From Patescibacteria group bacterium (GTDB lineage: Bacteria; Patescibacteriota; Patescibacteriia; Magasanikbacterales; UBA922), in the NCBI GenBank assembly GCA_041651535.1, contig JBAZIZ010000002.1, forward strand, positions 1,006 through 65,005: 64,000 bases of DNA, given 5' to 3'. Shown here in pieces: positions 1 to 57,108 of the stretch. The translations under genes and the position numbers were made by a program. The notes below the pieces were generated by a model. It was not told the origin of the DNA. It worked only from the letters and a program-made list of their open reading frames with translations, and did not search any database. Every line of letters begins with the position of its first letter. Within the stretch, counting starts at the first letter, position 1.

Positions 1-582
1 GAAACTTACAGACAGGTTTTTAATGATGAAATACTCCATCTCTATCAAACCTGCCGATTCATTTCTTGAAAGAGATTCCTCTCCCCAAGATAATGAACCT
101 TGGTAACCAAGATTTATGTTCAGGAGATCTTTCTGATAACTCCTAACATAAACCATTAACTGCCACTGAAGCATATTCCGGAAACCATCATAATTTGATG
201 GAATCCCATAACCGACACTGGCTTTTACCCCAGCTCTCCCTTTTATAAAAGGAAAGGACAGGAACCCACCGGAAAAAGTCGGGATATGCAAATCCAACTT
301 TTCCTCATGGGCGAACCTATAAGAAATACTCCCAAAGAAGTAATTCTTGTCAGTTCTTTCCCCGATCAATTTAATAACCGTAGGAATTTCCGGAACAGAT
401 TCTGGAACACTCGGACATTTGATAGTTTTCACTATCTTCTGTCCGTTATCAACGATCTCAACTTCAACACTTTCATCGTCTGGACCGCATACGCCGTCCT
501 CGACGATGATGTTGTATTTCTCTTCGGCATTTACACCAAAAAAGAAAAAACAACAGAAAACAAAAACGAAAAACTTTTTCAT
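1..582 (-). CDS. Secreted hypothetical protein, partial (C-terminus runs off the window edge). It has an N-terminal signal peptide, MKKFFVFVFCCFFFFGVNA.
   Basis: I translated the minus strand myself; this ORF is absent from the supplied track because it is open at the window edge. The ATG at 582-580 is preceded by GGGAGGAAGCC, a good Shine-Dalgarno site. A hydrophobic signal peptide ends in an AXA-like cleavage site. GC content here is clearly higher than in the rest of the window. Confidence 0.5.
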   Translation of the reverse strand, partial: MKKFFVFVFCCFFFFGVNAEEKYNIIVEDGVCGPDDESVEVEIVDNGQKIVKTIKCPSVPESVPEIPTVIKLIGERTDKNYFFGSISYRFAHEEKLDLHIPTFSGGFLSFPFIKGRAGVKASVGYGIPSNYDGFRNMLQWQLMVYVRSYQKDLLNINLGYQGSLSWGEESLSRNESAGLIEMEYFIIKNLSVSF

Positions 583-805
583 GGCTTCCTCCCATAAATT
601 AAAACAATAAAATTGCCGCTCTTTCAACCCGCTCAATTATAAAATAATTTTATAACTCAGCGGGTCAAAAGATTTTATGAAAGGATTATATTTTTAAATT
701 GTAATGTACTTAATTACATCTAAGTATTTATTTAAAAAGATAAATAAACACTATATATGTGGGGATGCGATTTTAATCTACATCCCCGAAGTCTGCCTCC
801 ACAGA

Positions 806-1693
806 CTATTTCTTGATTTTCCTGATTGTGATTTTTAACTCACCTTCGGAATCATCAGATTTATCAACTTCCGGCATAGCCTTACCGATCATGACAGTTT
901 TGCCAGAGTCTGCAGTTTTGCCTGAATCTTCTGGGCTAACAGCAGGTTCTTCCTTTTTCTCCTCTGTAGGAGCTGCAGGAAGATCATCAACCGCCGGCGG
1001 ATTTTCAATTTCAAGAGATTTTTTTGCCTCCTCCTCGGCTTTTTTGATCTCTTCAAGTTTCCTATCTTTAAGATAAGAAACCTCTCTAGACATCTTGAGA
1101 AATTTTTTCTCATGTTTGTCGAGCATCTCACCAGCCGGCCTCAACCAGGACATGACTTTTTCCGTTTTTTTATCGACTTTTTCAGAAAGTTTATCGACTT
1201 TTTCAGAAACTCCTGCAATTTCTTTTTTTGTAGTTTTTGTGAACTCAACCACTGCCTCATTATATGAAGCAAGTGACTGGGAAATTTCAGCAACTTTTGC
1301 TTCATTTTCCGAAAACATTCCGAAAGTGATACCTGCGATAACAAAAATTGTAATCAAGGTAAAAACCGAAAAACCAATAATCCACCAGCTTTTTACATTG
1401 ATGGAATCAACAACCGGAAAAACCGTGTTGTTAAACTTGGCTTCTCTTTCTGCGAACTTTTCGACGCTCTTGAGAAGCTCATCGAGCTTCTGCATTTCTG
1501 TCAGCTCATGTTCGGGTTTGGTTTCAAGTTTCGGTTCAGTTTTTACAGCTGGTTCTTCACCAGGCATGATTGTCTCCTGCCCAGCAAGAGCTTCCTGCTC
1601 TTCAATTGTGGTTGTTCCAGCTGATGCTGTTGCTTCCACGCTGCCGTTCTGATTGCTGCTTTCAGGAGTTTTTTCATTTGTTTTCTTTTCCAT
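806..1693 (-). CDS. Membrane-anchored coiled-coil protein, function unknown.
   Basis: The 295-aa ORF has one central hydrophobic helix (WWIIGFSVFTLITIFVIAGITFGMF), flanked by charged E/K-rich regions that look like coiled coil. GC content and codon usage (GAG, CTC, GGC) are atypical for this window. Confidence 0.5.
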   Translation of the reverse strand: MEKKTNEKTPESSNQNGSVEATASAGTTTIEEQEALAGQETIMPGEEPAVKTEPKLETKPEHELTEMQKLDELLKSVEKFAEREAKFNNTVFPVVDSINVKSWWIIGFSVFTLITIFVIAGITFGMFSENEAKVAEISQSLASYNEAVVEFTKTTKKEIAGVSEKVDKLSEKVDKKTEKVMSWLRPAGEMLDKHEKKFLKMSREVSYLKDRKLEEIKKAEEEAKKSLEIENPPAVDDLPAAPTEEKKEEPAVSPEDSGKTADSGKTVMIGKAMPEVDKSDDSEGELKITIRKIKK

Positions 1694-2004
1694 GTGACGT
1701 CCTCCGCCAAAAAAATTGATAATACTATATAAGACACACTTGTAATGAACGTATTATATTTATAATATAACGCATTAATATATCACATTTTAATGATTTT
1801 GTCAAGTGTTTTTAGAGAAAAAAGCACTTTTTTGGCTAATTATAGATAAAAAATCAAGAAAAAAATAACACAATTATAACTAAAATCTAACTTAAAAAAA
1901 GAAATTTTAAATTTTATCTCTTACAATAAAAAACCCTGAAAAAAATCAGAGCTTTTTACTATTTTATTTTATATACTTTATAATTTTACAATTCTAGATT
2001 TATT

Positions 2005-5000
2005 TTATTTTCCAAGTATCAACTTCTTAGCTGCTTCTCGTAAAAATTTTACTTTTGCCTCATTACCAGAAAATTTTTCTAACTTATCAGCATAAGCTTT
2101 ATACAGATAAGCTAGTTTAGAATCTTGTAAATGTTTATAATAAGGACTGTCCACACTGGTTCTTTCTAGAAGTCCATCAACTATTGCTGCAGTTGCTTCA
2201 TTGGTAGATAAATCCGGAGCAAAACTTTTTAAAGTTCTAGCTGGAATTTCCACAAATTTTACACCTTCGAAATAATCTTTTTCGTTTATTTCTTGATCGG
2301 AAATTTTTGAATTAAACAATTCTGATTTCATTTTTACTTTTTTAACAACTTCATCTAGAATTTTTTTCAAATTTTTATTTTTATCAATCATTTCAGAAAC
2401 TTTTTCATTTATTTCTTCTTTGCCTAAATCGTCTAAATTGTAATAATTGACTTCTTTTTTTGGCAAAACTTGTTCGTAAGCTTCATCAGTGTTTACTTCT
2501 ATTTCTTCTTCCCCTACCAAGGCATCATCCTCAAAACTTTTTCCAAAAGAATTCAATTTTCCTACGTTAGTTTCTGCACCTGAAGATGTTTGACCAGTAG
2601 TTTTTGGTATTTCTCTAGAAACAAAAGCTTCATCGTTTTTGATAGCTCCAGCAACACCAGTATTCTGAGCCATCATTTTATCAAGTTTTGAATCTGGTAA
2701 TTTTTGATCCAAACCTTGTGTGTTAGTTTCCAAATTTCCTATTTTTTGTGTTTCTTCGCTCACACTTTGCCCAAAATTTTTCAAACCTAAATTGTTTTCG
2801 TCTGCTTCACTTGGAGAACCTACTTCTTCTAAAGTTTTATCCATCATCATTTTCTTAGAAATATCTTGACCTAAACCAGCTCTGTTAGTTGCCATTTTTC
2901 CAATATCTTGAGCTTCTCCGCTATCAATATTAGCAAAAGATCTCAAATTTTGACTATCATTTTGATCGCTCAAATTAACATTTTCAGATTTAGGAATATC
3001 TTGTTTTTCAAAAACCTGATTATTTTGTGTTCTAAGAACGCCAGAATTTTCTGCAACTATTTTATCTACCTTAGAATCTGGTAATTTTTTACCTAAACCA
3101 CTTGTTTCAGTTTCCATTTCACCGATATTTTCAACTTCATTACCAACAGTATTTTTTCCAAAATTTTTCAAACCTAAATTGTTTTCGTTTGCTTCACTTG
3201 GGGAATTTATTCCTTCTAAAGTTTTATCCACGTTCATTCTTTGAGCTAAATTTGTATCAACTTTTGTTCCTCTAGTTTTTATATTTTCGATTTCACTTGC
3301 TTCTAAGTTATTTTTTTGAAAATTTTTCAAAGATGGATTATCTTGAGCTGAAACAGAACCAGTCTTGTAATCAGGAATATTTTGCTCTTCAAAAGCTTTA
3401 GAACCATCATAAACACTAGCTAAATTATCCATGTCAGTTTTTGGTTTATCTTTTGGAACAAAATCATAATTTTTAATATTCTTAAAAGGGTTTTGATTTG
3501 TTTCATCTTTTTTTAAATCATTTAAAGTTTCATAATTGAAATCTTCTTTTGAAAATTTAGATGAACTTTCTGGTATTTCTGGTTTTTTAATATCAAAATC
3601 TTTTTTATCAACTTCTGCTGTTTCTAAATTATCATTTATCTTAGAAAAATTTTTCAACTTTAAACTTTGGTCTACTACTCCAGAAATTTTTTCATTATTT
3701 TTTTCTAAAGTTGCTTTTATTTCATTAAATTTATTATCATCAATATTAAGTCCTAAATTTTTATCAAGAATTTTTACATCACTATTTATAGCAGAATCTA
3801 TTGCCCACAATTCTTTTATTTGATTATTAATATTTTGTGGAGTTTCTTCTGAAACTAAACTTAAGATAGTTTGTTCTAAATCTTTTACTCTACCAGCATA
3901 ATTATCAGAGCCTAATTCTGGATTTTTTTCTGCCAAAATTTTAAGTTTAGCTAAATCTTTTTCTACAAAAGACAAAGCTTTTTTAAATACTTCTTTATAA
4001 GGTTTGAATTCTGGATTAGAAACTAATTTATTTTCTATTATAGTTTTATAAGCCAAAACTTTATTTGATTTTTCAGTTACAGAGTCAATATCAAAATCAG
4101 TTTTAGCTGAAGTTTTTGTTTCAAAAACTTTTTCAGCAACTTTATTTTGTGCAGAATTATTTTCTATATTGTCTTTTTCCGCTTGTGGTGTTTCAATTAT
4201 TTTTGTAGGGCTTTCTTTTTCAGAAAATTCTCTAAATTTTTCATCATGAAAAAAAGCAGTTTTATCAATTGAATTTGCGTCTATTTTTATTTCTGGATAA
4301 CCATCTTCCCAAACAAGATTAATTTTTGCTCCTTTATAGAGTGTTTGACTATAATGTTCACCTGTCTTACCAAATTCATAACCATGTCTTTTAAATTGTT
4401 CTAATTTCCAATCTCTAAATAATTTTTCTTTTTGACCTTGGCTTAAATCATTTATTTTTAATTCATTATCTTTAGCAACTGCTTCAATTATTTTTTCTTT
4501 GAATTCTGGATTTTTTTCAAAATTATATATTGCGTGTGATAAACCTTGACCGGATTTTATTTCATAAGTTGCTAAAATCTTTGGAGTATTTTCATTTGTA
4601 TTACTAGGAAATTCAACTGTTTTTGGTTTTTCTGATTTTACAGAATCTGTACTTGTCTTTTCCTGAACAACTTCTTTTGTAGTAGAAGAATTTGTATCAG
4701 CTGTTTTTTCTGAAACTTGTGCCACTGTTTCAGAAGTTTTTGGTGTTTCTGGAGCTGGAGTTTCCTCTTGAAATGTAGATAAATCTAAATCTTTACCGCT
4801 GGCGATAACTTTTCCATCAGACAAACAGATATCAAAATCAGCAGTAATTTTATTATCACTAGATAATTTTAGATCACTAATTTTAACAAAACCATTGTTT
4901 GTTTCTACTATATAACCGTCCCCAACAGATTTTAAATTATCTAAAGTTATTTCAATTTTTTCTTTGTTAAATTCAATATTCAAAGAATTATTTGCGAGAT

Positions 5001-8000
5001 TTTCTAGAAATAAATTTTTTACTTTATAAGAATCCCACATTTTTTCTGGCATATCTTTTATTTTTTCCAATCGAACAAGATTATCTTTAAAATTATCAAC
5101 TACTGTTTCAAAAATTCCATTTTCTTTTATATTTTCAGTTAATCTGTCAAAAGCACCACTAATATCTGTGTCTCCAAAAGCAACACCATAAATACCTAAT
5201 CCAGTAAATATTTTTCCAACTGCTTTTATAAAATCTGTTTTTTTTGTTTTACTCTCTTTTTTAGCACCAATTCCAACTAAAGATCTAGTTGACTCGACAG
5301 TAGAATTTAACAATGAATCTCTCAAAATAAATCCTATTTTATCAATTAAAAAATTATCTCCTAAAATAGTTTTTTGTTTAAATTCTCGATTAGCTTTTAG
5401 AGATCTTTCTATTGTGGAAGTCAAAGCATAAACAACACCACGAAGGGCAAATTGTCCAGAGGCTACTAAAGCAGTGTTTAAAGCATCTTTCAAAATTGTC
5501 ATTTTAGAAATTTTGTTATAAACAAAAACATCAATAGTATTTTTGATACTTTCTTTTTCTTTTTTTTCTTCATTTTCATTTTTTTCACGATTTTGACGAA
5601 GAATTTCTGATAAAACTTTTTTAAATCTTTCTCTTTCTTCATCGGATAAATCTGGGGAATTTAATATTTTTTCTCGAAGAGATTTTATTTTATCTCTCAT
5701 TTCATGTTTTACTTGATTATCTTTTTCAGTAATTTCAGTTTTTTCTTTTTCATTTATTTCAGTATTTAAAATCACGAATCTTTGAAATTCATTGATAAAT
5801 TCTGAAAAAGTACTTTCCATTTCTTTTTTAACATTACTATTTTTTAATTCATTTTTTGAATATTGATCTATATCACCCCAACCCCAATCTTTATCAAAAA
5901 ATTTTTTTCCAGCTTTGCCTACTAACCAACCGGCTGAATCAGTCAAAAATTTTATACCAGTAGCTGAAGTACCGCTACTATAAATTACTTTGGCTAAAGT
6001 TTTACCTATAGTTTTAGCTTTTTCTTGGTTAGCTTTTTCAATTTCTTTTTTTTCTTCCAAATTTTCTTTAGAAAAAACTTTATTTTTTATTCGAGAAAAA
6101 AATGATTCTTTATTTGTTTTATCTAAAGAATTTAATTCATTTTCAAATTGTTTTTTTTGTTTTTCTAAAATTTTTAAATCACTATAATCAATTTTTGATT
6201 CTTCTAATTTTTTTATCACTAAAAAGTAAGCTCCTTTGGTTTGTATTAATTCTTTCTTTCGATCTTCATTTTTCTCTTCGTCAATCATCTTTGTCAAAGA
6301 TAAAACATCAGAAATTTTTAATTTATTTAAAGCTTTTAAAATTCTTGTATAAGAATTTATAATTTCAATTTTTTCTTCTAAACTTTTTTTCTTTGATTCT
6401 GTTTGCTCAATATTTTTATTATTTTTTTCAACAATATTTTCTGTTTCTTTTTCTGTTGATTGAATAATTATTTTTTCTTCTTGTTGTTTATTTTCTTGTT
6501 TATTTTCTTGTTCATTTTTAGTTTCTTCTTTATTTTCTGTTTGAGAGCTAATTTCTTTTCCTAATTTTTCAATTAAATTATTTTTTACTTTTTGTATAGA
6601 TTCGGCGTTTATGTCACCAGAAAATAAATCTGATTGATGTAAAAAATTTTCCATTTTGCCAACATTTTTGATAGCTTTTATTAAAATATTTTGTTTATCT
6701 TCTGTTAAAAGATCCATTTTTTCCTTCATTTTTTCAAAATTATATATCTCATTTTTACTAAAAAGTTCAGATATTTTTTGAAAGTTATCCAATACATTAA
6801 AAATAGTTTTAATAATTTCTTTTTGATTATTTATTTTTTTTCCTTCATTTAATACTAAATCCTGAATATTTTTTAAATTTTCATTAGTCATTAATTTATC
6901 AAAATCTGAAAAATCAATTTTTTCTATTTTTCCAACTAAAAATTCAGCTTCTTTTTTTTCATTTATTTTTTTTACATCTGCCGAAAGTATTTCTTCAAAA
7001 GAAGCTATAATTTGATTTTTATTATTAAAAATATCTTTTGGATAATTTGGGTCTTGTTCTTTTACTTTTTCCCAGACTTCTGAAACAATATCATCTGAAA
7101 TATTATATTTATCAGCATATTCATTTTTTAATACTTTCCTTACTTTTTCCAATTGTTTTTTTTCTAATTCAGGAGAATTATTTTTATCTACTTTTTTTGA
7201 TTCTGGTTTTTTTTGAGATCCTTTTTTTTCACCATTATTATTTTCTTTATTATTCATATTTGTAGATTTAATTGGATTAGAAAAATCAAAATTATTTTTT
7301 GTTGAAATTTTATTATTTATTTTTTGATTATTTTTTTCTTCTAAACTTTTTCTATCAGTAGAAATATTACCAAAGTTTTCCAATTCTTCTACATTTAATA
7401 AAATCTTTTGTTCTTTTCCATCTTTACCAATAAATTTATAATTTATTTTGCCATTTTTTATATCTTTTGGAGAAAATTCTTTTATACTTTTTCCACCAAA
7501 CAAAACAAAAATTTTATCAGCATTGGCATATTTTTTTTCCAAATTTTTTTGAGTTTTATTTGTATCTTCGGTTTCTGTCTCTGGTTTTTGTTTTTCAATT
7601 AAATTTTCTTTTTTTTGTATTTTTATTTTTTTATTCAATTCACGTGTTAAATCTTTTTTTACATCTCTCAATTGAACTACTTTTATTTCTTTGGCATTTG
7701 AATCAACATTACGCAAAACTAAATCATTAAAAGTACGCCCATTAGCACCAACTAGATCTTTTCTAATTTCGACAACTTTAAATTTATTATTTGGATTATT
7801 TTGATAAAAAAATTCATCACCGATTTTGTAAGTTTCATTTTCAAAATTTATTTCTGAAATTTTATTTTCTGTTTTATTTTTTTCTGTTTCTTTGACTAAA
7901 ACTGGGGCAACTTTATCAGCCCAACTTTCGATCGGATCTGCTTCTTTTTTTTGATTTTTTATTGTTTTATATTTTTCTTCTATATACAAAAAACCACGTT

Positions 8001-8241
8001 TAATTTCTTTTGTTTTTTTGATAATTTCTTCTTGGTCTGATAATTCTATGGCACTAGCAAGAGAAAGAACATTTTTTTCTATTGCTTTTAATTCTACTGC
8101 AAAAAAATCTATTTTTTCACCCAAATGTTTTTCTAATTCCTGTTTCAAATCGGATATTTTTTGAACATCAAAATTTGGATTTTTTTTATCCAAAATTTTT
8201 TTTATTTCTTTATTTATTTGACCGATTTGTTCTACACTCAT
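2005..8241 (-). CDS. Giant 2078-aa hypothetical protein. It is rich in K, E and N, has long predicted coiled-coil stretches and two ~129-aa tandem repeats near the C-terminus.
   Basis: A single uninterrupted 6.2-kb ORF. It carries an internal in-frame DNA tandem duplication with a 387-nt period. Predicted amphipathic or hydrophobic helices include DALNTALVASGQFALRGVVYALTSTIERS and FIKAVGKIFTGLGIYGVAFGD. I recognise no conserved catalytic motif. Confidence 0.7.
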   Translation of the reverse strand: MSVEQIGQINKEIKKILDKKNPNFDVQKISDLKQELEKHLGEKIDFFAVELKAIEKNVLSLASAIELSDQEEIIKKTKEIKRGFLYIEEKYKTIKNQKKEADPIESWADKVAPVLVKETEKNKTENKISEINFENETYKIGDEFFYQNNPNNKFKVVEIRKDLVGANGRTFNDLVLRNVDSNAKEIKVVQLRDVKKDLTRELNKKIKIQKKENLIEKQKPETETEDTNKTQKNLEKKYANADKIFVLFGGKSIKEFSPKDIKNGKINYKFIGKDGKEQKILLNVEELENFGNISTDRKSLEEKNNQKINNKISTKNNFDFSNPIKSTNMNNKENNNGEKKGSQKKPESKKVDKNNSPELEKKQLEKVRKVLKNEYADKYNISDDIVSEVWEKVKEQDPNYPKDIFNNKNQIIASFEEILSADVKKINEKKEAEFLVGKIEKIDFSDFDKLMTNENLKNIQDLVLNEGKKINNQKEIIKTIFNVLDNFQKISELFSKNEIYNFEKMKEKMDLLTEDKQNILIKAIKNVGKMENFLHQSDLFSGDINAESIQKVKNNLIEKLGKEISSQTENKEETKNEQENKQENKQQEEKIIIQSTEKETENIVEKNNKNIEQTESKKKSLEEKIEIINSYTRILKALNKLKISDVLSLTKMIDEEKNEDRKKELIQTKGAYFLVIKKLEESKIDYSDLKILEKQKKQFENELNSLDKTNKESFFSRIKNKVFSKENLEEKKEIEKANQEKAKTIGKTLAKVIYSSGTSATGIKFLTDSAGWLVGKAGKKFFDKDWGWGDIDQYSKNELKNSNVKKEMESTFSEFINEFQRFVILNTEINEKEKTEITEKDNQVKHEMRDKIKSLREKILNSPDLSDEERERFKKVLSEILRQNREKNENEEKKEKESIKNTIDVFVYNKISKMTILKDALNTALVASGQFALRGVVYALTSTIERSLKANREFKQKTILGDNFLIDKIGFILRDSLLNSTVESTRSLVGIGAKKESKTKKTDFIKAVGKIFTGLGIYGVAFGDTDISGAFDRLTENIKENGIFETVVDNFKDNLVRLEKIKDMPEKMWDSYKVKNLFLENLANNSLNIEFNKEKIEITLDNLKSVGDGYIVETNNGFVKISDLKLSSDNKITADFDICLSDGKVIASGKDLDLSTFQEETPAPETPKTSETVAQVSEKTADTNSSTTKEVVQEKTSTDSVKSEKPKTVEFPSNTNENTPKILATYEIKSGQGLSHAIYNFEKNPEFKEKIIEAVAKDNELKINDLSQGQKEKLFRDWKLEQFKRHGYEFGKTGEHYSQTLYKGAKINLVWEDGYPEIKIDANSIDKTAFFHDEKFREFSEKESPTKIIETPQAEKDNIENNSAQNKVAEKVFETKTSAKTDFDIDSVTEKSNKVLAYKTIIENKLVSNPEFKPYKEVFKKALSFVEKDLAKLKILAEKNPELGSDNYAGRVKDLEQTILSLVSEETPQNINNQIKELWAIDSAINSDVKILDKNLGLNIDDNKFNEIKATLEKNNEKISGVVDQSLKLKNFSKINDNLETAEVDKKDFDIKKPEIPESSSKFSKEDFNYETLNDLKKDETNQNPFKNIKNYDFVPKDKPKTDMDNLASVYDGSKAFEEQNIPDYKTGSVSAQDNPSLKNFQKNNLEASEIENIKTRGTKVDTNLAQRMNVDKTLEGINSPSEANENNLGLKNFGKNTVGNEVENIGEMETETSGLGKKLPDSKVDKIVAENSGVLRTQNNQVFEKQDIPKSENVNLSDQNDSQNLRSFANIDSGEAQDIGKMATNRAGLGQDISKKMMMDKTLEEVGSPSEADENNLGLKNFGQSVSEETQKIGNLETNTQGLDQKLPDSKLDKMMAQNTGVAGAIKNDEAFVSREIPKTTGQTSSGAETNVGKLNSFGKSFEDDALVGEEEIEVNTDEAYEQVLPKKEVNYYNLDDLGKEEINEKVSEMIDKNKNLKKILDEVVKKVKMKSELFNSKISDQEINEKDYFEGVKFVEIPARTLKSFAPDLSTNEATAAIVDGLLERTSVDSPYYKHLQDSKLAYLYKAYADKLEKFSGNEAKVKFLREAAKKLILGK
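2560..3240 (-). repeat. In-frame tandem duplication inside the giant gene: two copies of a 387-bp (129-aa) unit.
   Basis: The near-identical string ccaaaatttttcaaacctaaattgttttcg...gcttcacttgg occurs at 2771 and at 3158, which are 387 nt apart. The encoded repeats share the pattern DKTLE..SPSEA.ENNLGLKNFG...ETNT.GL..KLPDSK.DK. Confidence 0.8.
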
Positions 8242-8248
8242 ATAAAAA

Positions 8249-9376
8249 TTATTTATAAATTTCTTTTTTAAGAAGTTCTTTCATCTGAAGCAAGGTTTGT
8301 TTTACTTCATTAATTTTTTCTTCAATATTTTTGTTATTTAATTCAGAATTAAAAACTAATTGTTCAGCCTCTTTATTAAAACCAATTTTATACATATTAG
8401 TGTCAAAAATATTTTTTAATGTAGCAAATTCATTACGAATTTTTTTATCATTTATTTGATCTACGAGATATTCAAAAGAATTTTTTACAGTATTTAATTC
8501 TTTAGCGACATTCCAAAGTTTAGTTCTTTCACTAAAACCAAATCTTTCATCTTTTGATAATAAATTTTTGGTTTTTATCAAATCTACATTGACCGAAATT
8601 GAAACTCCATTTTCTAAATCTGTCAAAGTCAAAACTTTTTCAGTAATTTTTTTAATCACATATTTTTTTTCTTTTTGGACATTTGGAGAATAAAAAACAT
8701 AATCACCTTCAGAAAAAATTTCTTTGCCTATTTTTATTGATTCTTTTTTTTCTTCTTTTGCATCTTTTTTTTCTCCAAACAAAGACCATTTAGATTTTTT
8801 TTCGTCTTTTTTTTCTGTTAAATCTACTGGTTTATTTAAAATATTTGTAATTTGTTTTAAAAATGATTCAGAAACTTCTTCTTCTGGATTTGGTAGTGGA
8901 ACTTGTATATTAATAATATCATCTAATTTTTTTGCTGAATTACGCAAAAGTCTTTTCATTTTTTCTTCTTTACTTTCTTCAGTTTCTTTTTTATCATTAT
9001 TTTCTGGATCACCACCATTTGCTGAACCAAGATTATCTAAAAGAGAATCAATCTCTGTGTTTGCTTCGTCTTTGATATCTTTGGTATCTTTTTTGCCTTT
9101 CGCGTTTGAAGCAAAAAGATTATTTTCTGTTTGTTGATTTTCTTTAAGAATTTGAGTAATTTTTGCTACTTCTATTTCTTTATTTTTTCTCAAAATTTCT
9201 CTAGCTTCTGCTATTTTTGCTTTCAATTTTGCATCTTTTTCCTTACTAGTTTCAAAAGGTAATTCTGAGTTAGAATCTTTTTTATTTGATTGTTTGATTT
9301 CTCCTAACATTCCATTACCATTTAATACTCCTCCTAAAGCTGAATCTGGTGTTTGATAAAATTCTCCTCTTTTCAT
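8249..9376 (-). CDS. Hypothetical K/E-rich protein of 375 aa. It is in an operon with the giant gene.
   Basis: The ORF ends 8 nt upstream of the giant gene start. Its C-terminal segment GDYVFYSPNVQKEKKYVIKKITEKVLTLTDL resembles the N-terminal segment IGDEFFYQNNPNNKFKVVEIRKDLV of the giant protein, suggesting a shared small beta-domain. Confidence 0.55.
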   Translation of the reverse strand: MKRGEFYQTPDSALGGVLNGNGMLGEIKQSNKKDSNSELPFETSKEKDAKLKAKIAEAREILRKNKEIEVAKITQILKENQQTENNLFASNAKGKKDTKDIKDEANTEIDSLLDNLGSANGGDPENNDKKETEESKEEKMKRLLRNSAKKLDDIINIQVPLPNPEEEVSESFLKQITNILNKPVDLTEKKDEKKSKWSLFGEKKDAKEEKKESIKIGKEIFSEGDYVFYSPNVQKEKKYVIKKITEKVLTLTDLENGVSISVNVDLIKTKNLLSKDERFGFSERTKLWNVAKELNTVKNSFEYLVDQINDKKIRNEFATLKNIFDTNMYKIGFNKEAEQLVFNSELNNKNIEEKINEVKQTLLQMKELLKKEIYK

Positions 9377-9384
9377 ATAATTAC

Positions 9385-9570
9385 TTAATTAGATTTAATT
9401 AAATTTATTTTTTCTAAAACTTCATGAATTTGTTTTTTATTAGAAACTTCATGAATTTGTTTTTTTAAATCACTCAATTTTTTTTCTAGCTCTTCCATTT
9501 TTGCAAAAAGATCAAGATATTGTTCTAACTTTTCTGAATCATTTTCTAATTGTGTCTGTTTTTTAGACAT
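9385..9570 (-). CDS. Small 61-aa coiled-coil ORF containing a 21-bp direct DNA repeat. It may not be translated.
   Basis: This short ORF lies between operon genes. The DNA repeat aacttcatgaatttgtttttt occurs twice at about 9416-9470, producing a KKQIHEV peptide repeat. Confidence 0.35.
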   Translation of the reverse strand: MSKKQTQLENDSEKLEQYLDLFAKMEELEKKLSDLKKQIHEVSNKKQIHEVLEKINLIKSN

Positions 9571-9574
9571 AATT

Positions 9575-9925
9575 CTATTTTTTTGAATCTAAGATATCTT
9601 CTAATTCTTTTAATTTATTTAAAGTTTCTAAATCATTTTTCTCAATATTTTGTGTAAATTCATCTTGAATTTGTTTTAACTTTTCTATAAATTTATTATC
9701 TTCAGATTTAGTCGCTAAGTCTAAATATTTATTTTCTAAAACATCTGTAAGTTTATCAATCTGTTCCAAAGAAAGTGTAGGTAAAATATCCAAAAAAGCT
9801 TGACGAGTTTCATCATCTATTTTTAATTCTGAAATTAAAAAACCTAATTTTATACCTTTAGCTTCAGCTAGGGCTTTTAATTTTGGGTCAACAATCACTT
9901 CTGTTGTTTGATTATTTTTATCCAT
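9575..9925 (-). CDS. Hypothetical acidic 116-aa protein, the first gene of the putative four-gene operon.
   Basis: The ORF lies directly upstream of, and co-directional with, the 61-aa and 375-aa ORFs and the giant gene. An AT-rich divergent promoter region lies upstream (9926-10237). Confidence 0.5.
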   Translation of the reverse strand: MDKNNQTTEVIVDPKLKALAEAKGIKLGFLISELKIDDETRQAFLDILPTLSLEQIDKLTDVLENKYLDLATKSEDNKFIEKLKQIQDEFTQNIEKNDLETLNKLKELEDILDSKK

Positions 9926-10237
9926 ACTTTTTGTTTAAAACTTATTTTTACAAATTATAACATTTTTTTTACAAAAAGACTAATTTTAAGCAAATAAACA
10001 ACTAATTTATAAACAGTTAAATATAGCACTTTTTGGAGTTTTTGTCAATCAAATAATTCTAGATTCTGGATTTTAAATTTAAGAATTAAGTTTTATTTTA
10101 TTTTTTAGCTTATTTTAGCTATTTTAATATATTATATTTATTTTTTTAATTTTCTTTTAAATTTAATTCCAAAATCATAAATCATAATTTTTTTGACTTC
10201 TAACTACTTTTATTATAGAATAAAAACAAAAAATAAT

Positions 10238-11143
10238 ATGGAAAAAATTAAAATTGCCTTTTTTGGAACACACAAATTTGCTCGAGAAATACTAGAAAAT
10301 TTATCTAAAAATCAAAAATTTGATATTAAATTTGTTATTACCCAACCAGACAAACCAGTTGGAAGAAAACAAGAAATAAGCAAATCTCCAGTAAAAATAT
10401 TTGCCGAAGAAAATAAAATTCCTGTTTTTGAACCAAAAAGTTTAAAAAACTTTATTTTACCAGAAAAAATTGATATTGGAATAACTGCTCAATATGGTCT
10501 TATCCTACCAGAAAAAATTCTTTCAGAACCAAAATTTGGTATTTTAAATGTTCACACTTCTCTACTACCGAAATATCGTGGCGCTTCTCCGATACAGACT
10601 GCTTTATTAAATAATGAAAAAATAACTGGCATCACAATTATGAAAATGGATATTGGTCTAGATACTGGTGATATTTTAAAACAAAAAGAAATAATTATTG
10701 ATGAAGACGACACTTATCCAATTTTGGAACAAAAACTTATAATTTTAGCACAAGATTTTTTAGCAGAGACAATCGTAGATTATATTCAAGGAAAAATAAC
10801 TATTAATAAACAAGACGAAACAAAAGCTACTTTTTGTAAACAATTAGACAGAAATGATGGCAAAATAGATTTTAAAAATGAAACTAGTCAAAATATTTAT
10901 AATAAATATCGAGCTTTTTTCCCTTGGCCAGGTATTTGGGCAGAATGGCAAGGAAAAAGAATAAAATTATTAAATATCAAACCTAGCAAAGAAAAAATAA
11001 CGGCTGGCGAAATGAAAATAAATACTGATAAACTTTTTATCGGAACAGCGAGTTCAGCAATAGAAATCTTTGAATTACAAATTGAAGGAAAAAAAAGCAT
11101 GACTGCTCAAGCTTTTATCAATGGTTATAAAAATCTTATTTGA
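10238..11143 (+). CDS. fmt: Methionyl-tRNA formyltransferase.
   Basis: N-terminal KIAFFGT, the formyltransferase core HTSLLPKYRGASPIQ, and a C-terminal Fmt domain are present. The track ORF starts at 10193, but the conserved N-terminus begins at the internal Met (MEKIKIAFFGT) at 10238. Confidence 0.85.
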   Translation: MEKIKIAFFGTHKFAREILENLSKNQKFDIKFVITQPDKPVGRKQEISKSPVKIFAEENKIPVFEPKSLKNFILPEKIDIGITAQYGLILPEKILSEPKFGILNVHTSLLPKYRGASPIQTALLNNEKITGITIMKMDIGLDTGDILKQKEIIIDEDDTYPILEQKLIILAQDFLAETIVDYIQGKITINKQDETKATFCKQLDRNDGKIDFKNETSQNIYNKYRAFFPWPGIWAEWQGKRIKLLNIKPSKEKITAGEMKINTDKLFIGTASSAIEIFELQIEGKKSMTAQAFINGYKNLI

Positions 11144-17446: not shown

Positions 17447-18142
17447 TTATCTTTTTGTTTGTGTTTCTAAATATTCCATAACTCTTGTATTACCCATAAG
17501 TCGAGCAATATCAAGAGCGGTTTCTCCTTCTCTGTTTTTAAGATCAATTTTTACGCCAATTTTCTCAACAAGAAATTTGGCACAACTAACTGCATCATAT
17601 TCAGCTGCCGTCATTAAAAATGTCTTTTCTTTAAAAAGTTCATTCCAAGGAATAAACAACTGGAGTAAGTGGTGAAGATTAAAATCTTCATTATTTTTAA
17701 AGATTTTCTGAAGCATATTACTATCATCTTTTTTAATAAAATAAGTAATTGCTTCAAAACCAATAAAACCATATCCTTTTTCAAAGATACTTTTTATTAT
17801 TTCTTCTTTGTCTTTTCCTTCATTCAACCTATAAGCTCGGTCCAGTGGGTATGCCCCACTTTTATCCATTTTAAAAGCCAAAGAAAATCTTTCTTCTGTC
17901 CAATCATCCCATTCTGTATGCAACCTCTTTATAGCATTACACACCAACCAACTTTTTCCTAAAGAAACAAGAGCCGCAAAAAAAGAAACTCCTGTTTTTT
18001 CATCGACAGCGGTTAAAACTGCAAGATTCTTTTCAAATAGAGAAAAAACAATATTATCAATATTTTTTTCTCCTTTAAGTTTCTCTAACAAATTAACAAG
18101 ATCTTGCTGTGTTTTTTTTGAATACATGGTTCTCTCCTCCAA
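17447..18142 (-). CDS. Ankyrin-repeat-containing protein.
   Basis: The C-terminal region TAAEYDAVSCAKFLVEKIGVKIDLKNREGETALDIARLMGNTRVMEYL matches the ankyrin repeat consensus (G-TALH-A...G....V..LL..GA). Confidence 0.6.
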   Translation of the reverse strand: MEERTMYSKKTQQDLVNLLEKLKGEKNIDNIVFSLFEKNLAVLTAVDEKTGVSFFAALVSLGKSWLVCNAIKRLHTEWDDWTEERFSLAFKMDKSGAYPLDRAYRLNEGKDKEEIIKSIFEKGYGFIGFEAITYFIKKDDSNMLQKIFKNNEDFNLHHLLQLFIPWNELFKEKTFLMTAAEYDAVSCAKFLVEKIGVKIDLKNREGETALDIARLMGNTRVMEYLETQTKR

Positions 18143-53715: not shown

Positions 53716-56700
53716 TTAGACAACTATACTAAGTAATTTATCTTTAATATAAATTATTTTTTTAATTTCTTTGCCTTCTATCCATTTTTTTACATTTTCG
53801 TCTGCAAGTGCTTTTTTTTCTATTTCTGATTCATTAGCATCAGAATTTATTTCAATATTTGTCCTTACTTTTCCATTTATTTGAATAGCGATTAAAATTT
53901 TATTTTCAATTATTTTAGTCGGATCAAAAAGTGGCCAATTTTCAAAACTTAAAGTGTTTTTATGACCAAGCTTTTGCCATAATTCTTCTGTTAAATGTGG
54001 GGCTAATGGTGATAACATTAAAATAAATAATTCAAAATTTTTTTCAGAAATTTTTTCTTGTTTTTGTAAAAAATTAGATAATTCCATCATTTTGGCAATT
54101 GCTGTATTAAATTGCATTTTTTCTAAATCTTCACCAACTTTTTTTAAAGTTTTATGTATTATTTTGTCAGTTTCTTCACTGCTAAATTTTTTAGAAATTT
54201 TTTCTTGTAAATTCCAGACTTTTTCCAAAAATCTTTTTACACCTTTGACTCCATTTGTATCCCAAGGTTTATCAGCTTCAAGAGGACCCATAAACATTTC
54301 ATAAACACGCAAAGTGTCAGCTCCATATTCATTTACTACATCAGTTGGATTGATAACATTTCCCCATCTTTTACTCATTTTTCGGCTATCTGGACCCAAA
54401 ATTAAACCTTGATGACGATTTACTTTAAAAGGTTCATCAAAATCTATATAACCAGCGTCAAATAAGACTTTAGTAAAAAATCTAGCATAAAGCAAATGGC
54501 CATTTACATGTTCTGGACCACCGAGATAAAAATCAACTGGCATCCATTTTTTTAACATTTCACTACTGGCAAATTCTTTATCATTATGAGGATCCAAATA
54601 ACGATAATAATACCAAGATGAACACATAAAAGTGTCTAAAGTGTCCGGTTCTCTTTTCCAACCATTTCCATATTTCTTTTCAATACCCTCGTTAAACGAT
54701 TTTGAATAATTTAATGGTGATTGCCCTGTTGGTTTAAAATCTACATCATCAGGCAAAATAACTGGTAAATCTTTTTCTGGAATTGGTTTAATTCCTAAAA
54801 GTAAACATTCTTCTAAAATACTTGGTTCTTCAAAAGCACAAAAATGTTCTGTTGTTGGATTAGTAATCACAATTCTCGCATCTAAAACATTTCTTAGATA
54901 TTCCAAATCTTTTCTAAAAATCACGCTTGGATTTTTTTCTCCTAAAATAACAAAATCATCACACTTATTTTTTACTAATTCAAAATCAAATTTAAAACTA
55001 TCACTAGTATCAACTGCTGATCTTTCTCGATCAACGAATTCTGGAAACACAACTGGATCAACCAAAACAACTTTAGCAACTTTTTTATTTATTTTTTCTA
55101 AAAGTCTATAAGTCACTGGACCACCTAAACTGTGAGCAACTATAATTGTATTTTCATCACAATTAAAATTATTTAAAATATAATTTGTTTGTTCAATAAC
55201 ATTTGGTTTATCAGTATTTGGTAAATCAAAAGTTGTAACATTATGACCTCGATTTTCTAATTCTTGTTTAAGCCATTTTCTAAAATTTCCTAAGCCAGTT
55301 GAAGAAAAACCATGAATAAATAAATAATTATATTTTTTTGTTTTTAATTCTTCATTGATAAGCATTGGAATTGGTGCTCCCCAAAATCTTTGACGAGAAA
55401 CTGACCAATCACGAAGTTTGTATTGAATTTTTCTCTTACCCAAACCTTTTTCTTCTAAAAATTCAATGATTTTCTCTTGGGCTTCTTTAATATCTAAATC
55501 ATTTAAAAAATCAGAATTTATCAAAACACCGTCACCTGCAAAACAATAGTTATTTTTTTCTAAATCTTTTAATGAATCAACAACATTGTCTACATTTACA
55601 AATTTTTTGCCTTCTTCTAAACTTAACCAAAGTGGTTGATGTATCTTCAATTCTTCTTCAACTATTTTTTCTCTTTCTTCATTAATTAATTCAAACAAAA
55701 GTGGAGTAAAAATAAGTTTTCGATTATCATCTTTAACTGGATGATAAAAATTTACTCGTTTAGAAGCTCCAATCTGTCTAATAAATTTTACATTTTTATA
55801 ACCTGATTCTTCTAAAATTTCTCTTTTACCAGCTTCTTCTAAAGTTTCATTTTCTTCTATTCCACCAGTAACCACCGCGTTCCAATTAACATTAACATAT
55901 TTTAAAAATAAATATTTATCCGTTTTTTTATCATAAACATGACATTCAACTGCTTGTCTATGTGTCCATTTTTTTCCTTTTTTTGGAGGATCTGATTCGC
56001 TAACACGAAATGGCGCGATAACTTGTTTTATTTTTAAATCAAATTTTTTAGCAAAATCAAAATCTCTTTCATCATGGGCTGGCACTGCCATGATAGCTCC
56101 AGTTCCATATCCAGCCAAAACATAATCAGCTGTAAAAATTGGAATTTCTTCATTATTTACTGGATTGATTGCTTTTATCCCTTTGATTTCAACTCCAGTT
56201 TTTTCTTTTTCAATTTGACGATCAAGTTCTGTTTTTAATTTTGTTTTTTCTATATATTTTTCTACTTCCTGCCAATTTTCTATTTTTTTTCTTAAATTTT
56301 GTAATATTTTACTTTCTGGAGCCAAAACCATAAAAGTCACACCAAAAAGTGTATCTGGTCGAGTAGTAAAAACTGTAATTTTTTCAGTACTACCCGAAAT
56401 TTTAAAATCAACTTCCGCACCTTCTGATCTACCAATCCAATCTTTTTGTCTTTTTTTTGTTTCTTCTGGCCAGTCTAAATTATCTAATCCTTGCAAAAGT
56501 TTGTCAGCATAATCAGTAATTTTTAAATACCATTGTTCCATTTCTTTTTGGACAACTTCTGTTTCACATCTTTCACATTTTCCTTCAACCACTTGTTCAT
56601 TAGCTAAGACAGTTTTACAACCTTCACACCAATTTACTGCTTGTTTTTTTCTATAAGCTAAACCTCGTTTATACATTAACAAAAAAAACCATTCAGTCCA

Positions 56701-57108
56701 TTTATAATAATTAGAATTATGAGCACCAACTTCTCTATCCCAATCAACTGAAATTCCTAAAGATTTTATTTGTGATCTAAAATTATCAATCGCTTTGTCA
56801 GTGCTAATTCGTGGATGAATATTTGTTTTTATAGCATAATTTTCCGCTGGTAAACCAAAAGAATCCCAACCAATAACCTGTAAAACTTTTTTTTCTTTCA
56901 TTCTTTGGTAGCGGGCAAAGATATCACAAGCTGTATAAACTTCAGCGTGCCCAACATGAAGACCGCTTCCTGATGGATAAGGAAGTTGTGGTAAAATATA
57001 AAATTTATTATATATAGAAACTTTTTTTGGAGTTTCAAAAGTTTTATTTTTTTCCCAATATTCTTGCCATTTTTTTTCTATTTTTTGAGGATTATACTTG
57101 TTTTCCAT
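53716..57108 (-). CDS. leuS: Leucyl-tRNA synthetase carrying two inserted domains. A Nudix hydrolase domain is inserted in the C-terminal part of the CP1/editing region, and an RBBP9/YdeN-type alpha/beta serine hydrolase domain is inserted after the APIPM motif.
   Basis: Class I motifs HVGHAEV (HIGH) and KMSKR (KMSKS) are present, along with the editing-domain motifs TRPDT and AVPAHDERDFDFAKKF and RDWSVSRQRFWGAPIPM. Between IKQVIAP and CFAGDGVLINSDF lies a Nudix box (GGIEENETLEEAGKREILEESG), roughly aa 367-515, DNA 55564-56010. Between APIPM and IPEKDLPVILPDDVD lies a GxSxG hydrolase domain (YLFIHGFSSTGLGNFRKW...IVAHSLGG...D...H), roughly aa 583-772, DNA 54793-55362. The 1130-aa length exceeds the normal 800-880 aa. 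Confidence 0.9.
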   Translation of the reverse strand: MENKYNPQKIEKKWQEYWEKNKTFETPKKVSIYNKFYILPQLPYPSGSGLHVGHAEVYTACDIFARYQRMKEKKVLQVIGWDSFGLPAENYAIKTNIHPRISTDKAIDNFRSQIKSLGISVDWDREVGAHNSNYYKWTEWFFLLMYKRGLAYRKKQAVNWCEGCKTVLANEQVVEGKCERCETEVVQKEMEQWYLKITDYADKLLQGLDNLDWPEETKKRQKDWIGRSEGAEVDFKISGSTEKITVFTTRPDTLFGVTFMVLAPESKILQNLRKKIENWQEVEKYIEKTKLKTELDRQIEKEKTGVEIKGIKAINPVNNEEIPIFTADYVLAGYGTGAIMAVPAHDERDFDFAKKFDLKIKQVIAPFRVSESDPPKKGKKWTHRQAVECHVYDKKTDKYLFLKYVNVNWNAVVTGGIEENETLEEAGKREILEESGYKNVKFIRQIGASKRVNFYHPVKDDNRKLIFTPLLFELINEEREKIVEEELKIHQPLWLSLEEGKKFVNVDNVVDSLKDLEKNNYCFAGDGVLINSDFLNDLDIKEAQEKIIEFLEEKGLGKRKIQYKLRDWSVSRQRFWGAPIPMLINEELKTKKYNYLFIHGFSSTGLGNFRKWLKQELENRGHNVTTFDLPNTDKPNVIEQTNYILNNFNCDENTIIVAHSLGGPVTYRLLEKINKKVAKVVLVDPVVFPEFVDRERSAVDTSDSFKFDFELVKNKCDDFVILGEKNPSVIFRKDLEYLRNVLDARIVITNPTTEHFCAFEEPSILEECLLLGIKPIPEKDLPVILPDDVDFKPTGQSPLNYSKSFNEGIEKKYGNGWKREPDTLDTFMCSSWYYYRYLDPHNDKEFASSEMLKKWMPVDFYLGGPEHVNGHLLYARFFTKVLFDAGYIDFDEPFKVNRHQGLILGPDSRKMSKRWGNVINPTDVVNEYGADTLRVYEMFMGPLEADKPWDTNGVKGVKRFLEKVWNLQEKISKKFSSEETDKIIHKTLKKVGEDLEKMQFNTAIAKMMELSNFLQKQEKISEKNFELFILMLSPLAPHLTEELWQKLGHKNTLSFENWPLFDPTKIIENKILIAIQINGKVRTNIEINSDANESEIEKKALADENVKKWIEGKEIKKIIYIKDKLLSIVV

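Follow-up and report, generated by a model that had tools for sequence, protein, structure and literature searches.

For most genes of Patescibacteria no function is known, and little is understood of what underlies their small cells and their life as episymbionts, the lifestyle of the cultivated members. Among the described systems to which a giant patescibacterial protein can be compared, HMW1/HMW2/HMW3 and P200 of the Mycoplasma pneumoniae terminal organelle, as well as coiled-coil-rich proteins such as Scy/FilP, are large, charged and signal-less proteins of reduced-genome or polar-growing bacteria, and are actual or presumed intracellular scaffolds. Other large proteins are accompanied by dedicated small ones: type III translocators (IpaB/SipB) have class II chaperones, and type VII LXG toxins have the small helical partners Lap1/Lap2. 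In the giant adhesin candidates published for Patescibacteria, FhaB or other adhesion domains are combined with signal peptides or transmembrane segments (PMC11809585, PMC13059738).

Here, we analysed a patescibacterial locus dominated by a gene for a 2078-aa protein, contained in a 64-kb window (the whole stretch of DNA that was studied) from a source that NCBI labels as a Patescibacteria MAG. The locus carries a conserved module, composed of an acidic protein of the 116-aa family, often a coiled-coil protein of ~63 aa, and a very large protein. This module has so far been found only in Patescibacteria (the few giant-family members that carry a taxon name all belong there), with the NCBI lineage labels Magasanikbacteria, Kaiserbacteria and "Patescibacteria group" for the loci that bear it, and it matches no described family.

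Organization of the locus

The four genes lie in the same direction on the minus strand and encode proteins of 116 aa (9575-9925), 61 aa (9385-9570), 375 aa (8249-9376) and 2078 aa (2005-8241), as reported in the preliminary description of this DNA. The near-abutting junctions reported there are also real, with intergenic gaps of 4, 8 and 7 nt. A 267-bp spacer separates the 116-aa gene from the divergent fmt gene (10193-11143, plus strand). This spacer, previously taken for an AT-rich divergent promoter region, has indeed a GC content of ~21% and includes a predicted sigma-70-like promoter (TTGACA-17-TGnTATATT) at 10048-10020 on the minus strand, which by consensus match alone agrees at 11 of 12 positions and has an extended -10 element. 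At the other end, 43 nt past the stop of the giant gene, starts a hairpin resembling an intrinsic terminator and flanked by A and U tracts (1962-1923, minus strand). Its folding energy of -18.9 kcal/mol (z = -6.1) was equalled by none of 200 shuffled sequences, and a scanner for consensus terminators did not report it. Further on, a promoter of like type is found at 1805-1777, ahead of the next gene.

The predicted promoter, the four tightly spaced genes and the terminator-like hairpin together form a putative single transcription unit. The earlier designation of a four-gene operon is apt as regards the single unit, but what is conserved is a module of two to three genes, and the 375-aa gene is a lineage-specific ORFan. 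The open frame of 2078 codons has a calculated chance probability of ~1e-83, at ~25% GC and with a stop expected every ~11 codons. The locus sequence is 100% identical in one ENA assembly and one Logan assembly, so that the frame is undisrupted in both; its disruption had been named beforehand as a finding that would speak against the giant ORF.

The conserved core of the giant protein

The giant protein is rich in Lys, Glu and Asn (K 15%, E 11%). Word-index searches with this protein, the 375-aa protein and a profile of the domain described below (domain A) returned the queries themselves and two fragments, probably because K/E-rich words saturate the candidate list, so an exhaustive HMMER search was needed. 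This search gave 90 representatives at E ≤ 1e-3, and about 85 large proteins (348-2189 aa) have the core of the giant protein, which consists of a pre-A motif followed by domain A. Scans of genomes and metagenomes with back-translated motifs gave 3 loci and 1 locus, respectively, these low numbers reflecting a narrow pattern.

The pre-A motif comprises ~45 aa and reads Y-x-T-x-T-S-x-x-G-V/I-K-x-x-T-D...G-D-I. Of 83 family members, 80 have it, at a distance of 29-156 aa ahead of domain A, and in the giant protein it is found at about aa 758, within a region of about aa 740-795 (5857-6024, minus strand). Domain A, a conserved core of ~210 aa (aa 864-1072; 5026-5652, minus strand), was detected in 83 proteins with E-values from 7e-82 to 5e-31 (6.8e-71 for the giant protein itself). 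It contains two sequence motifs, K-V-S-G-x-x-I-A-[KR]-D-A-L-N-T-A-L-T-A-[ST]-G...L-R-G...E-R and D-F-I-K-A-x-G-x-V-x-R-x-x-G-I. The AlphaFold2 model of this domain is all-helical and of low confidence (pLDDT 64, pTM 0.37), which makes its Foldseek matches meaningless; no PDB fold or sequence match to domain A was obtained.

In addition, 16 family members have a domain B, which in the giant protein covers aa 1225-1352 (4186-4569, minus strand). It is modelled with confidence (pLDDT 89.5) as a compact alpha/beta domain of ~120 aa, for which there is no solved analogue. We considered whether domain B could be a LysM domain (PF01476, ~45 aa with beta-alpha-alpha-beta topology), but neither its sequence nor its predicted topology agrees with this. 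Outside the core the lengths vary by lineage, from 3 to 1434 aa before it and from 12 to 1013 aa after it. The giant protein is conserved only in pre-A, domain A and, in some lineages, domain B.

The small proteins encoded upstream

The first gene of the unit encodes an acidic helical protein (pI 4.6) that contains no Trp, and whose homologues all have a pI of 4.3-5.0. A homologue is encoded directly upstream of the giant homologue in all 12 loci for which upstream DNA is available (profile E-values from 1.6e-35 to 1.7e-27), which makes this protein a conserved partner of the giant one. The family is characterized by the motif G-K-K-L-G-F-L-I-A-x-L...E-Q...L-E-x-x-Y-L (alignment A7), and the 116-aa protein has no match in Pfam or the PDB. 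A possible fusion of a 116-aa-like segment to the N-terminus of the family member P0022 (phmmer E 7e-4) was discarded, as it was not recovered with the family profile. The 3' end of the 116-aa gene contains an A-run (TCAAAAAAATAG).

The second gene encodes a coiled-coil protein with marked heptad periodicity (z = 8.1) and an internal 27-nt tandem duplication, by which KKQIHEV occurs twice; the tandem repeat lies at 9402-9469. In six of the 12 loci an ORF of 61-67 aa occupies the equivalent position; compared in pairs, these ORFs are weakly similar (z up to 7). The second small ORF is absent from the other six loci. The frame offset between the two small ORFs, deduced from the coordinates of four loci, is +1, -1, +1 and +1. 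A programmed frameshift joining them was rejected, since their relative frame changes between loci and half of the loci have no second ORF.

The pre-A motif, domain A and a 116-aa homologue encoded upstream define a new family, and the locus studied here has all three. The conserved core, and the obligate small partner that goes with it across Patescibacteria, had been overlooked in the preliminary description.

Lineage-specific regions

The 375-aa gene, the tandem repeats and the other regions of the giant protein outside the core are specific to the lineage. The repeats, described before as tandem units of 129 aa, are genuine: aa 1614-1725 align to aa 1741-1853 with a score of 230 (44.6 ± 7.9 for shuffled sequences), and two units of ~128 aa make up the region of aa 1614-1853 (2683-3402, minus strand). 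At the DNA level, 2675-2843 and 3059-3230 are 78% identical, with an offset of 384-387 bp. Each unit is itself composed of two diverged sub-units, of ~53 and ~75 aa, and the motif L[KRN][NS]F[GAQ] recurs at aa 1638, 1691, 1766, 1820 and 1896, the last being a partial fifth copy. The repeat region has no homologue elsewhere in the giant family. The C-terminal helical domain (aa 1922-2039; 2125-2478, minus strand) is common only to a 132-aa fragment, P0049 (38% identity, E 3e-9), and the protein also has a linker rich in Thr, Ser and Pro. The long coiled-coil-like tracts noted earlier are present to a limited extent: heptad-periodic stretches account for ~26% of the giant protein in a crude test of 3.5-residue periodicity and, together with helical stretches free of Pro and Gly, for about a quarter to a third of it. 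In one other family member a WipA-like phosphatase domain is fused (E 1.9e-15), a domain known from a Legionella secreted effector.

The 375-aa protein, which is K/E-rich, has no homologue in any related locus or giant-family protein, and no match in Pfam, NCBIfam, PHROG, PADLOC or the PDB. A short GD-x-(F/V)-FY module had been proposed to be common to this protein and the N-terminus of the giant one. The letters are there, but the similarity is not significant, with an alignment score of 38 against 32 ± 6 for shuffled sequences, 79 of 500 of which reach 38. We also considered that the 375-aa protein might once have been the N-terminal part of the giant one and have split off from it; this was discarded in view of its lack of similarity to any family member.

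Database searches and genomic context

No recognisable catalytic motif or family was found in the four products, in agreement with the preliminary description. Assignment to well-known families, SMC-like or S-layer proteins for example, had been named there as an outcome that would refute the description, and none of the profile searches made such an assignment for any product. No match in Pfam, NCBIfam, PHROGs or PADLOC rose above noise (for PHROGs, none at E below ~1e-3), and none of the products has a Pfam match to LXG, WXG100 or a chaperone family. Among PDB sequences, neither the single sequences nor the profiles A1 and A7 found a credible match; the highest-ranking hits, Rtt103 (E 0.013) and the NLRP7 PYD (E 9e-4), involve just short helical stretches and were rejected.

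The module is found next to housekeeping genes, which include fmt, mraZ/mraW/ftsL, uvrABC (two loci), ribosomal protein genes and parAB (one locus), and not next to mobile elements. In four of 13 loci, it is preceded by three membrane-protein genes, for a polytopic protein, a TM-anchored protease/PDZ-like protein and a Wzz-like protein, and in some loci it adjoins Wzz-like and Wzy_C envelope genes. Secretion-system genes are present beside the module in none of the 13 loci, and no secretion gene, such as those of EssC type, was detected among the ORFs scanned in the 64-kb window. Likewise, none of the loci examined contains capsid, tail or baseplate genes, and a search of 2.9 million viral contigs and 50,697 phage genomes brought up no relative of domain A.

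Possible membrane association and roles

Domain A includes two weakly hydrophobic helices rich in small residues (~50% G/A/S/T), at aa ~921-942 and ~1002-1023, which are uncharged apart from a conserved Arg and have a low hydrophobic moment. Their family-mean Kyte-Doolittle peaks are 0.98 and 0.85. The hydrophobic helices attributed to the giant protein in the preliminary description are in fact marginal, with values of 1.14 and 1.38 against the usual cut-off of 1.6. By a simple Kyte-Doolittle window scan, which is not a trained predictor of transmembrane or signal segments, the N-termini are hydrophilic, a hydrophobic signal-like N-terminus is present in none of the 83 full-length family members among those listed, and just six of the listed proteins have a 19-residue window above 1.6. 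The semi-hydrophobic helices of domain A could nevertheless be genuine membrane-spanning or membrane-inserting segments.

We tentatively propose that the giant protein is a cytoplasmic, membrane-proximal structural scaffold with a dedicated small partner, a reading drawn from sequence features and of low confidence. The protein would stay on the cytoplasmic side as a long scaffold, in which pre-A and domain A would form a helical bundle, and the two uncharged, small-residue-rich helices would pack together in an oligomer, or else lodge on or in the inner face of the membrane. The variable K/E-rich helical and low-complexity arms may serve as spacers or lineage-specific interaction surfaces. 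As dedicated assembly partners or chaperones, the acidic 116-aa protein and, in loci that have it, the 61-aa coiled coil would bind the giant protein. We counted in favour of the scaffold the unit structure, the conserved core, the linkage to the partner, the lack of a signal segment, the weakly apolar helices and the housekeeping setting, as well as the heptad-periodic stretches and the membrane-protein genes that precede the module in four of 13 loci, which fit a membrane-proximal role. Against it, a small acidic partner beside a large signal-less protein is also typical of secretion chaperones, and such rapid change away from the core is less characteristic of housekeeping scaffolds than of proteins under pressure from hosts or phages. 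We also counted against it the member with the WipA-like domain and the low confidence of the domain A model.

The main alternative is that the giant protein is an effector or membrane-inserting translocator, exported independently of Sec signal peptides, for which the 116-aa protein (with or without the 61-aa one) acts as export chaperone; the semi-hydrophobic helices of domain A would then insert into a target membrane. We consider this possible but not probable. In its favour, the partners are uniformly acidic (pI 4.3-5.0), helical and ~100 aa long, and in all 12 loci their gene directly precedes that of the giant protein, but they show no Pfam match to a chaperone family, and neither a WXG nor an LXG motif is present. 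Family members lack a signal peptide and yet have two conserved uncharged helices rich in small residues, which are, however, less hydrophobic than typical translocator transmembrane hairpins. The extremely fast divergence of the non-core regions speaks for this alternative, and proteins directed at a host are plausible given that cultivated Patescibacteria live as episymbionts. The WipA-like fusion also argues for an effector, but occurs in a single member, and in 13 loci no secretion-system gene adjoins the module.

Host attachment as an adhesin or cell-surface scaffold, the role suggested in the preliminary description, appears unlikely. Adhesion is a role often proposed for giant patescibacterial proteins (PMC11809585, PMC13059738), the protein studied here carries tandem repeats and a Thr/Ser/Pro-rich linker, and Wzz-like and Wzy_C envelope genes adjoin the module in some loci. 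However, surface attachment finds no support in the sequence, since the family lacks a signal peptide or clear transmembrane helix, and the giant protein also has no lipobox-like start or strong transmembrane anchor. By Pfam, no adhesion, cell-wall-binding, anchoring or S-layer domain is present in the giant protein and its 85 relatives (~100,000 residues), and SLH, FhaB, FN3, Big, LysM and PG_binding are absent from these and from segments of the giant protein searched at E ≤ 10; domain B is no LysM by sequence or predicted topology. A genuine surface protein is encoded in the window at 57687-62681, and it looks different, with FG-GAP repeats, an InlB B-repeat and PG_binding_1.

The locus could also be a remnant of a phage tail or tailocin, with the giant protein as tape measure and the small genes as G/GT-like tail assembly chaperones. 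Two small ORFs ahead of a gene for a very long helical protein, in which weakly hydrophobic segments lie centrally, resemble the phage arrangement, and the A-run (TCAAAAAAATAG) at the end of the 116-aa gene also counts for this reading. It is very improbable, given that the four products have no PHROGs match (E below ~1e-3), that domain A has no relative among the viral contigs and phage genomes searched, that capsid, tail and baseplate genes are absent from every locus, and that the small ORFs vary in frame relation (+1, -1, +1, +1) and the second is missing in half of the loci. An SMC-like or other nucleotide-driven chromosome or cytoskeletal motor is scarcely credible: the giant protein is long and partly coiled-coil and lies near uvrABC in two loci and parAB in one, but no SMC_N, AAA or P-loop Pfam match was found in it or its 85 relatives, by scans identical to those that detected SMC_N in the neighbouring UvrA and so work here.

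Seen more broadly, the module might be a Patescibacteria-specific apparatus made of domains unseen elsewhere, either a membrane-associated scaffold where the cell touches its host or a protein that reaches the host with the help of a chaperone. We regard this broader reading as rather doubtful; if true, it would bear directly on how episymbionts organise or exploit host contact. Should the module prove to be a scaffold or a chaperoned effector, it would add a new component to the cell biology of Patescibacteria, and otherwise it still represents a new domain family that is missing from current databases. An apparent orphan giant ORF has become a defined family with a motif of ~45 aa, a helical domain of ~210 aa, a domain of ~120 aa and a small acidic partner, all of which give a starting point for predicting the structure of the complex, for phylogenetic profiling and for genetic work in relatives that can be cultivated.

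Comparison with known systems

The module resembles a phage tape measure gene with its G/GT chaperones in gene order and in the great length variation among members, and differs from it in having no tape-measure match in PHROG or Pfam, no viral relatives and no phage neighbourhood. With the patescibacterial adhesin candidates the giant protein shares the phylum, a similar size class and fast evolution, and the largest proteins of that work are also without full-length homologues (PMC11809585, PMC13059738). In contrast to those candidates, which contain FhaB, FN3 or DUF2341, the giant family has neither signal or transmembrane segments nor adhesion domains.

The similarity to chaperoned effectors lies in one or two small acidic helical proteins encoded just upstream of a large helical protein, which here has no Sec signal and has internal apolar helices. 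Unlike these systems, the module shows none of the LXG, WXG or TPR-chaperone signatures and lies next to no secretion genes, and its apolar helices are much less hydrophobic than translocator hairpins. Finally, the giant protein is very large, charged, partly coiled-coil, signal-less and lineage-specific, as are HMW1/HMW2/HMW3, P200 and Scy/FilP. It has no sequence or profile similarity to these proteins, and its heptad periodicity amounts to ~26%. What sets the giant family apart from them is a helical core that is not a coiled coil and an obligate small acidic partner, both of which are absent there.

The four-gene operon and its limits

Four minus-strand ORFs, of 116 aa (9575-9925, the first gene), 61 aa (9385-9570), 375 aa (8249-9376) and 2078 aa (2005-8241, the fourth gene, hereafter the giant), were found exactly where the preliminary description had placed them, with gaps of 4, 8 and 7 nt between successive ORFs. 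The GC content across the region is 20-34%, with a strong, strand-specific AT skew, and by our own calculation about one codon in 11 would be a stop at this composition, so an open frame of 2078 codons cannot be due to chance. A promoter match, TTGACA-17-TGnTATATT (10048-10020, minus strand), lies in the 267-bp spacer between the operon and the divergent fmt gene (10193-11143), and a hairpin with A and U tracts on either side (1962-1923, minus strand; folding energy −18.9 kcal/mol, z = −6.1) is present 43 nt past the giant's stop codon. Since the next gene past the operon (806-1693) is served by a separate promoter of this type, these signals indicate that the four genes form one bounded unit. 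We conclude that the operon is real. Its DNA is matched at 100% identity by an ENA assembly, over 19.4 kb, and by a Logan assembly of SRR8542065, whose contig stops inside the repeat; the source is labelled a Patescibacteria MAG by NCBI.

The extended −10 promoters at 1777-1805 and 10020-10048 (minus strand), which belong to consecutive transcription units, are nearly identical and may represent the organism's consensus for a strong promoter.

The earlier observation was borne out for the most part, in the position of the ORFs, the bounded unit and the tandem repeat of the giant, where aa 1614-1725 and 1741-1853 align with a score of 230 (shuffles 44.6 ± 7.9). The DNA cores of the repeat, offset by 384-387 bp, share 78% identity, each unit consists of two diverged sub-units, and the motif L[KRN][NS]F[GAQ] occurs at aa 1638, 1691, 1766, 1820 and 1896. 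The proposed hydrophobic helices and coiled-coil-like tracts came out weaker: the former reach Kyte-Doolittle values of only 1.14 and 1.38, and a crude periodicity test gives a heptad-periodic share of about 26% for the giant, 32% for the 375-aa protein and 80% for the 61-aa protein. A GD-x-FY module said to be common to the 375-aa protein and the giant is not significant (score 38, shuffles 32 ± 6). Within the 61-aa gene, a 27-nt tandem duplication (2.7 copies; 9402-9469, minus strand) doubles the peptide KKQIHEV.

A patescibacterial family of giant proteins

Sequence searches of Pfam, NCBIfam, PHROGs, PADLOC and the PDB gave no match for any of the four products, and word-index searches returned only the queries themselves. 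An exhaustive HMMER scan with aa 879-2078 of the giant, run against 1.84 billion representatives, retrieved 90 proteins at E ≤ 1e-3, of which 41 reach E ≤ 1e-10, nearly all aligning to a single stretch; judged from sequence, the giant is not an orphan. With iterated profiles, domain A (aa 864-1072, about 210 aa) was found in 83 proteins of 348-2189 aa, with two strongly conserved motifs, K-V-S-G-x-x-I-A-[KR]-D-A-L-N-T-A-L-T-A-[ST]-G...L-R-G..Y...E-R..K-A and D-F-I-K-A-x-G-x-V-x-R-x-x-G-I. It is preceded in 80 of these members, by 29-156 aa, by a pre-A motif of about 45 aa (giant aa ~750-790; Y-x-T-x-T-S-x-x-G-V/I-K-x-x-T-D...G-D-I), and followed in 16 by domain B (giant aa 1225-1352). The first ~730 aa of the giant, its Thr/Ser/Pro linker, repeats and C-terminal domain have no family counterpart except a few short fragments, which match only parts of its C-terminal half (P0016, P0037 and P0060 with 58-76% identity, P0049 with 38%).

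The model of domain A (34-sequence alignment) is all-helical and of low confidence (pLDDT 64, pTM 0.37), with no meaningful PDB match. That of domain B (12 sequences) is confident (pLDDT 89.5, pTM 0.77), with a predicted order of one strand, three helices and four strands. LysM was ruled out for domain B by sequence and predicted topology, and the domain therefore has no solved analogue in the structure libraries searched. Most domain B sequences conserve two His (in T-V-H-x-G-A and G-x-P-H), which are replaced by Tyr and Glu in the window's copy.

Named members belong to Candidatus Magasanikbacteria, Candidatus Kaiserbacteria and unclassified Patescibacteria, all annotated 'hypothetical protein'. 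Pfam scans of 85 full-length members (~100,000 residues) gave single-member matches only. The sole strong recognisable domain is a WipA-like phosphatase domain (PF21663, E 1.9e-15) at aa 350-569 of a Candidatus Kaiserbacteria protein (P0076), N-terminal to the conserved core; the remaining two matches, one phage-scaffold and one MAP65, are weak.

Gene context and the acidic partner

Gene contexts were retrieved for 13 independent relatives, and 12 of these loci include upstream DNA. All 12 encode a homologue of the 116-aa protein directly upstream of the giant homologue (profile E 1.6e-35 to 1.7e-27), and the two genes are −8 to 27 nt apart when nothing is encoded between them. The partner proteins are all acidic (pI 4.3-5.0), measure 93-117 aa in the 11 that were aligned and share a conserved motif of their own, with no Pfam or PDB match. 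An ORF of 61-67 aa lies between partner and giant in six of the 12 loci, with weak but detectable mutual similarity (z up to 7). No homologue of the 375-aa gene was found in any relative locus or family member examined, and this gene, inserted into the module, is specific to the lineage.

The module follows a conserved block of three membrane-protein genes in four loci (L003, L012, L015, L016), a subset of the lineages. The block, absent from the window, encodes a protein of ~266 aa with 7-8 TM segments, a protease/PDZ-like protein of ~355 aa with a TM anchor, and a Wzz-like protein of ~205 aa with two TM segments; in L003, L015 and L016, Wzy_C and GHL15/FG-GAP genes are found downstream. The other loci have housekeeping genes as neighbours, and apart from the partner no neighbour is universal. 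These results show a conserved, previously undescribed gene module, whose giant proteins form a patescibacterial family with two new domains and an obligate partner, missing from current domain databases.

Surroundings of the operon

The rest of the window resembles an ordinary patescibacterial chromosome (mraZ/mraW/ftsL, uvrA/B/C, ligA, dnaB, comEC, pilM, leuS, glycosyltransferases). An ankyrin-repeat protein (17447-18142, minus strand) lies between uvrC and mraZ, as it also does in assembly L001. Beside the operon, window 1-1700 and L001 17600-21128 cover a region that encodes a single-pass membrane coiled-coil protein of 295 aa (806-1693), which has a promoter to itself, followed by a 244-aa protein whose N-terminus is signal-like and by a gene with a called length of 670 aa, which has no Pfam match and continues beyond the retrieved sequence. 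GC reaches 36-41% in window 1-1500 (~25% elsewhere), and this region may be a compositionally foreign island. In the leucyl-tRNA synthetase (1130 aa; 53716-57108, minus strand), Pfam matches to NUDIX (aa 383-500) and alpha/beta-hydrolase (aa 596-689) fall between the editing and anticodon-binding domains, an unusual insertion for this enzyme. A 1664-aa protein (57687-62681, minus strand) carries 11 FG-GAP repeats, InlB B-repeat domains and, at its C-terminus, a PG_binding_1 domain; it is a large protein of the conventional surface or cell-wall-bound type.

Localisation and possible function

None of the listed family members has a hydrophobic N-terminus, and only six of the listed proteins have a 19-residue window above Kyte-Doolittle 1.6. 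The two apolar helices of domain A (family means 0.98 and 0.85) are about 50% Gly/Ala/Ser/Thr and nearly uncharged save a conserved Arg, with a low hydrophobic moment, and are probably neither classical transmembrane nor surface amphipathic helices.

We tentatively favour a cytoplasmic, membrane-proximal scaffold, although at less than even odds. The conserved helical core would oligomerise or dock at the membrane, the variable arms would be spacers or lineage-specific interaction surfaces, and the acidic partner, alone or together with the small coiled coil, would act as assembly factor. Somewhat less probable is an effector or translocator whose export depends on a chaperone. This reading also agrees with the acidity of the partners, the lack of a Sec signal, the apolar helices, the rapid evolution of the arms and the one WipA-like fusion; secretion genes are adjacent to the module in none of the loci examined. 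To an explanation outside those considered here we give the same weight as to export.

A Sec-dependent surface adhesin is poorly supported and improbable. The host attachment or surface scaffolding first suggested for the giant finds no support, with no hydrophobic N-terminus and no adhesion domain matches, whereas published giant patescibacterial adhesin candidates combine signal peptides or transmembrane segments with FhaB-type or other adhesion domains (PMC11809585, PMC13059738). The 1664-aa protein is the more credible attachment candidate. A phage tape-measure remnant is very unlikely, with no domain A relatives in the viral contigs or phage genomes searched, and an SMC-like motor, also poorly supported, is slightly less likely still.

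As a sequence-level lead into microbial dark matter, the module is solid and open to test. In an indirect, unsupported form of the attachment idea, the giant might be the cytoplasmic scaffold of a contact structure, by analogy with the Mycoplasma terminal organelle.
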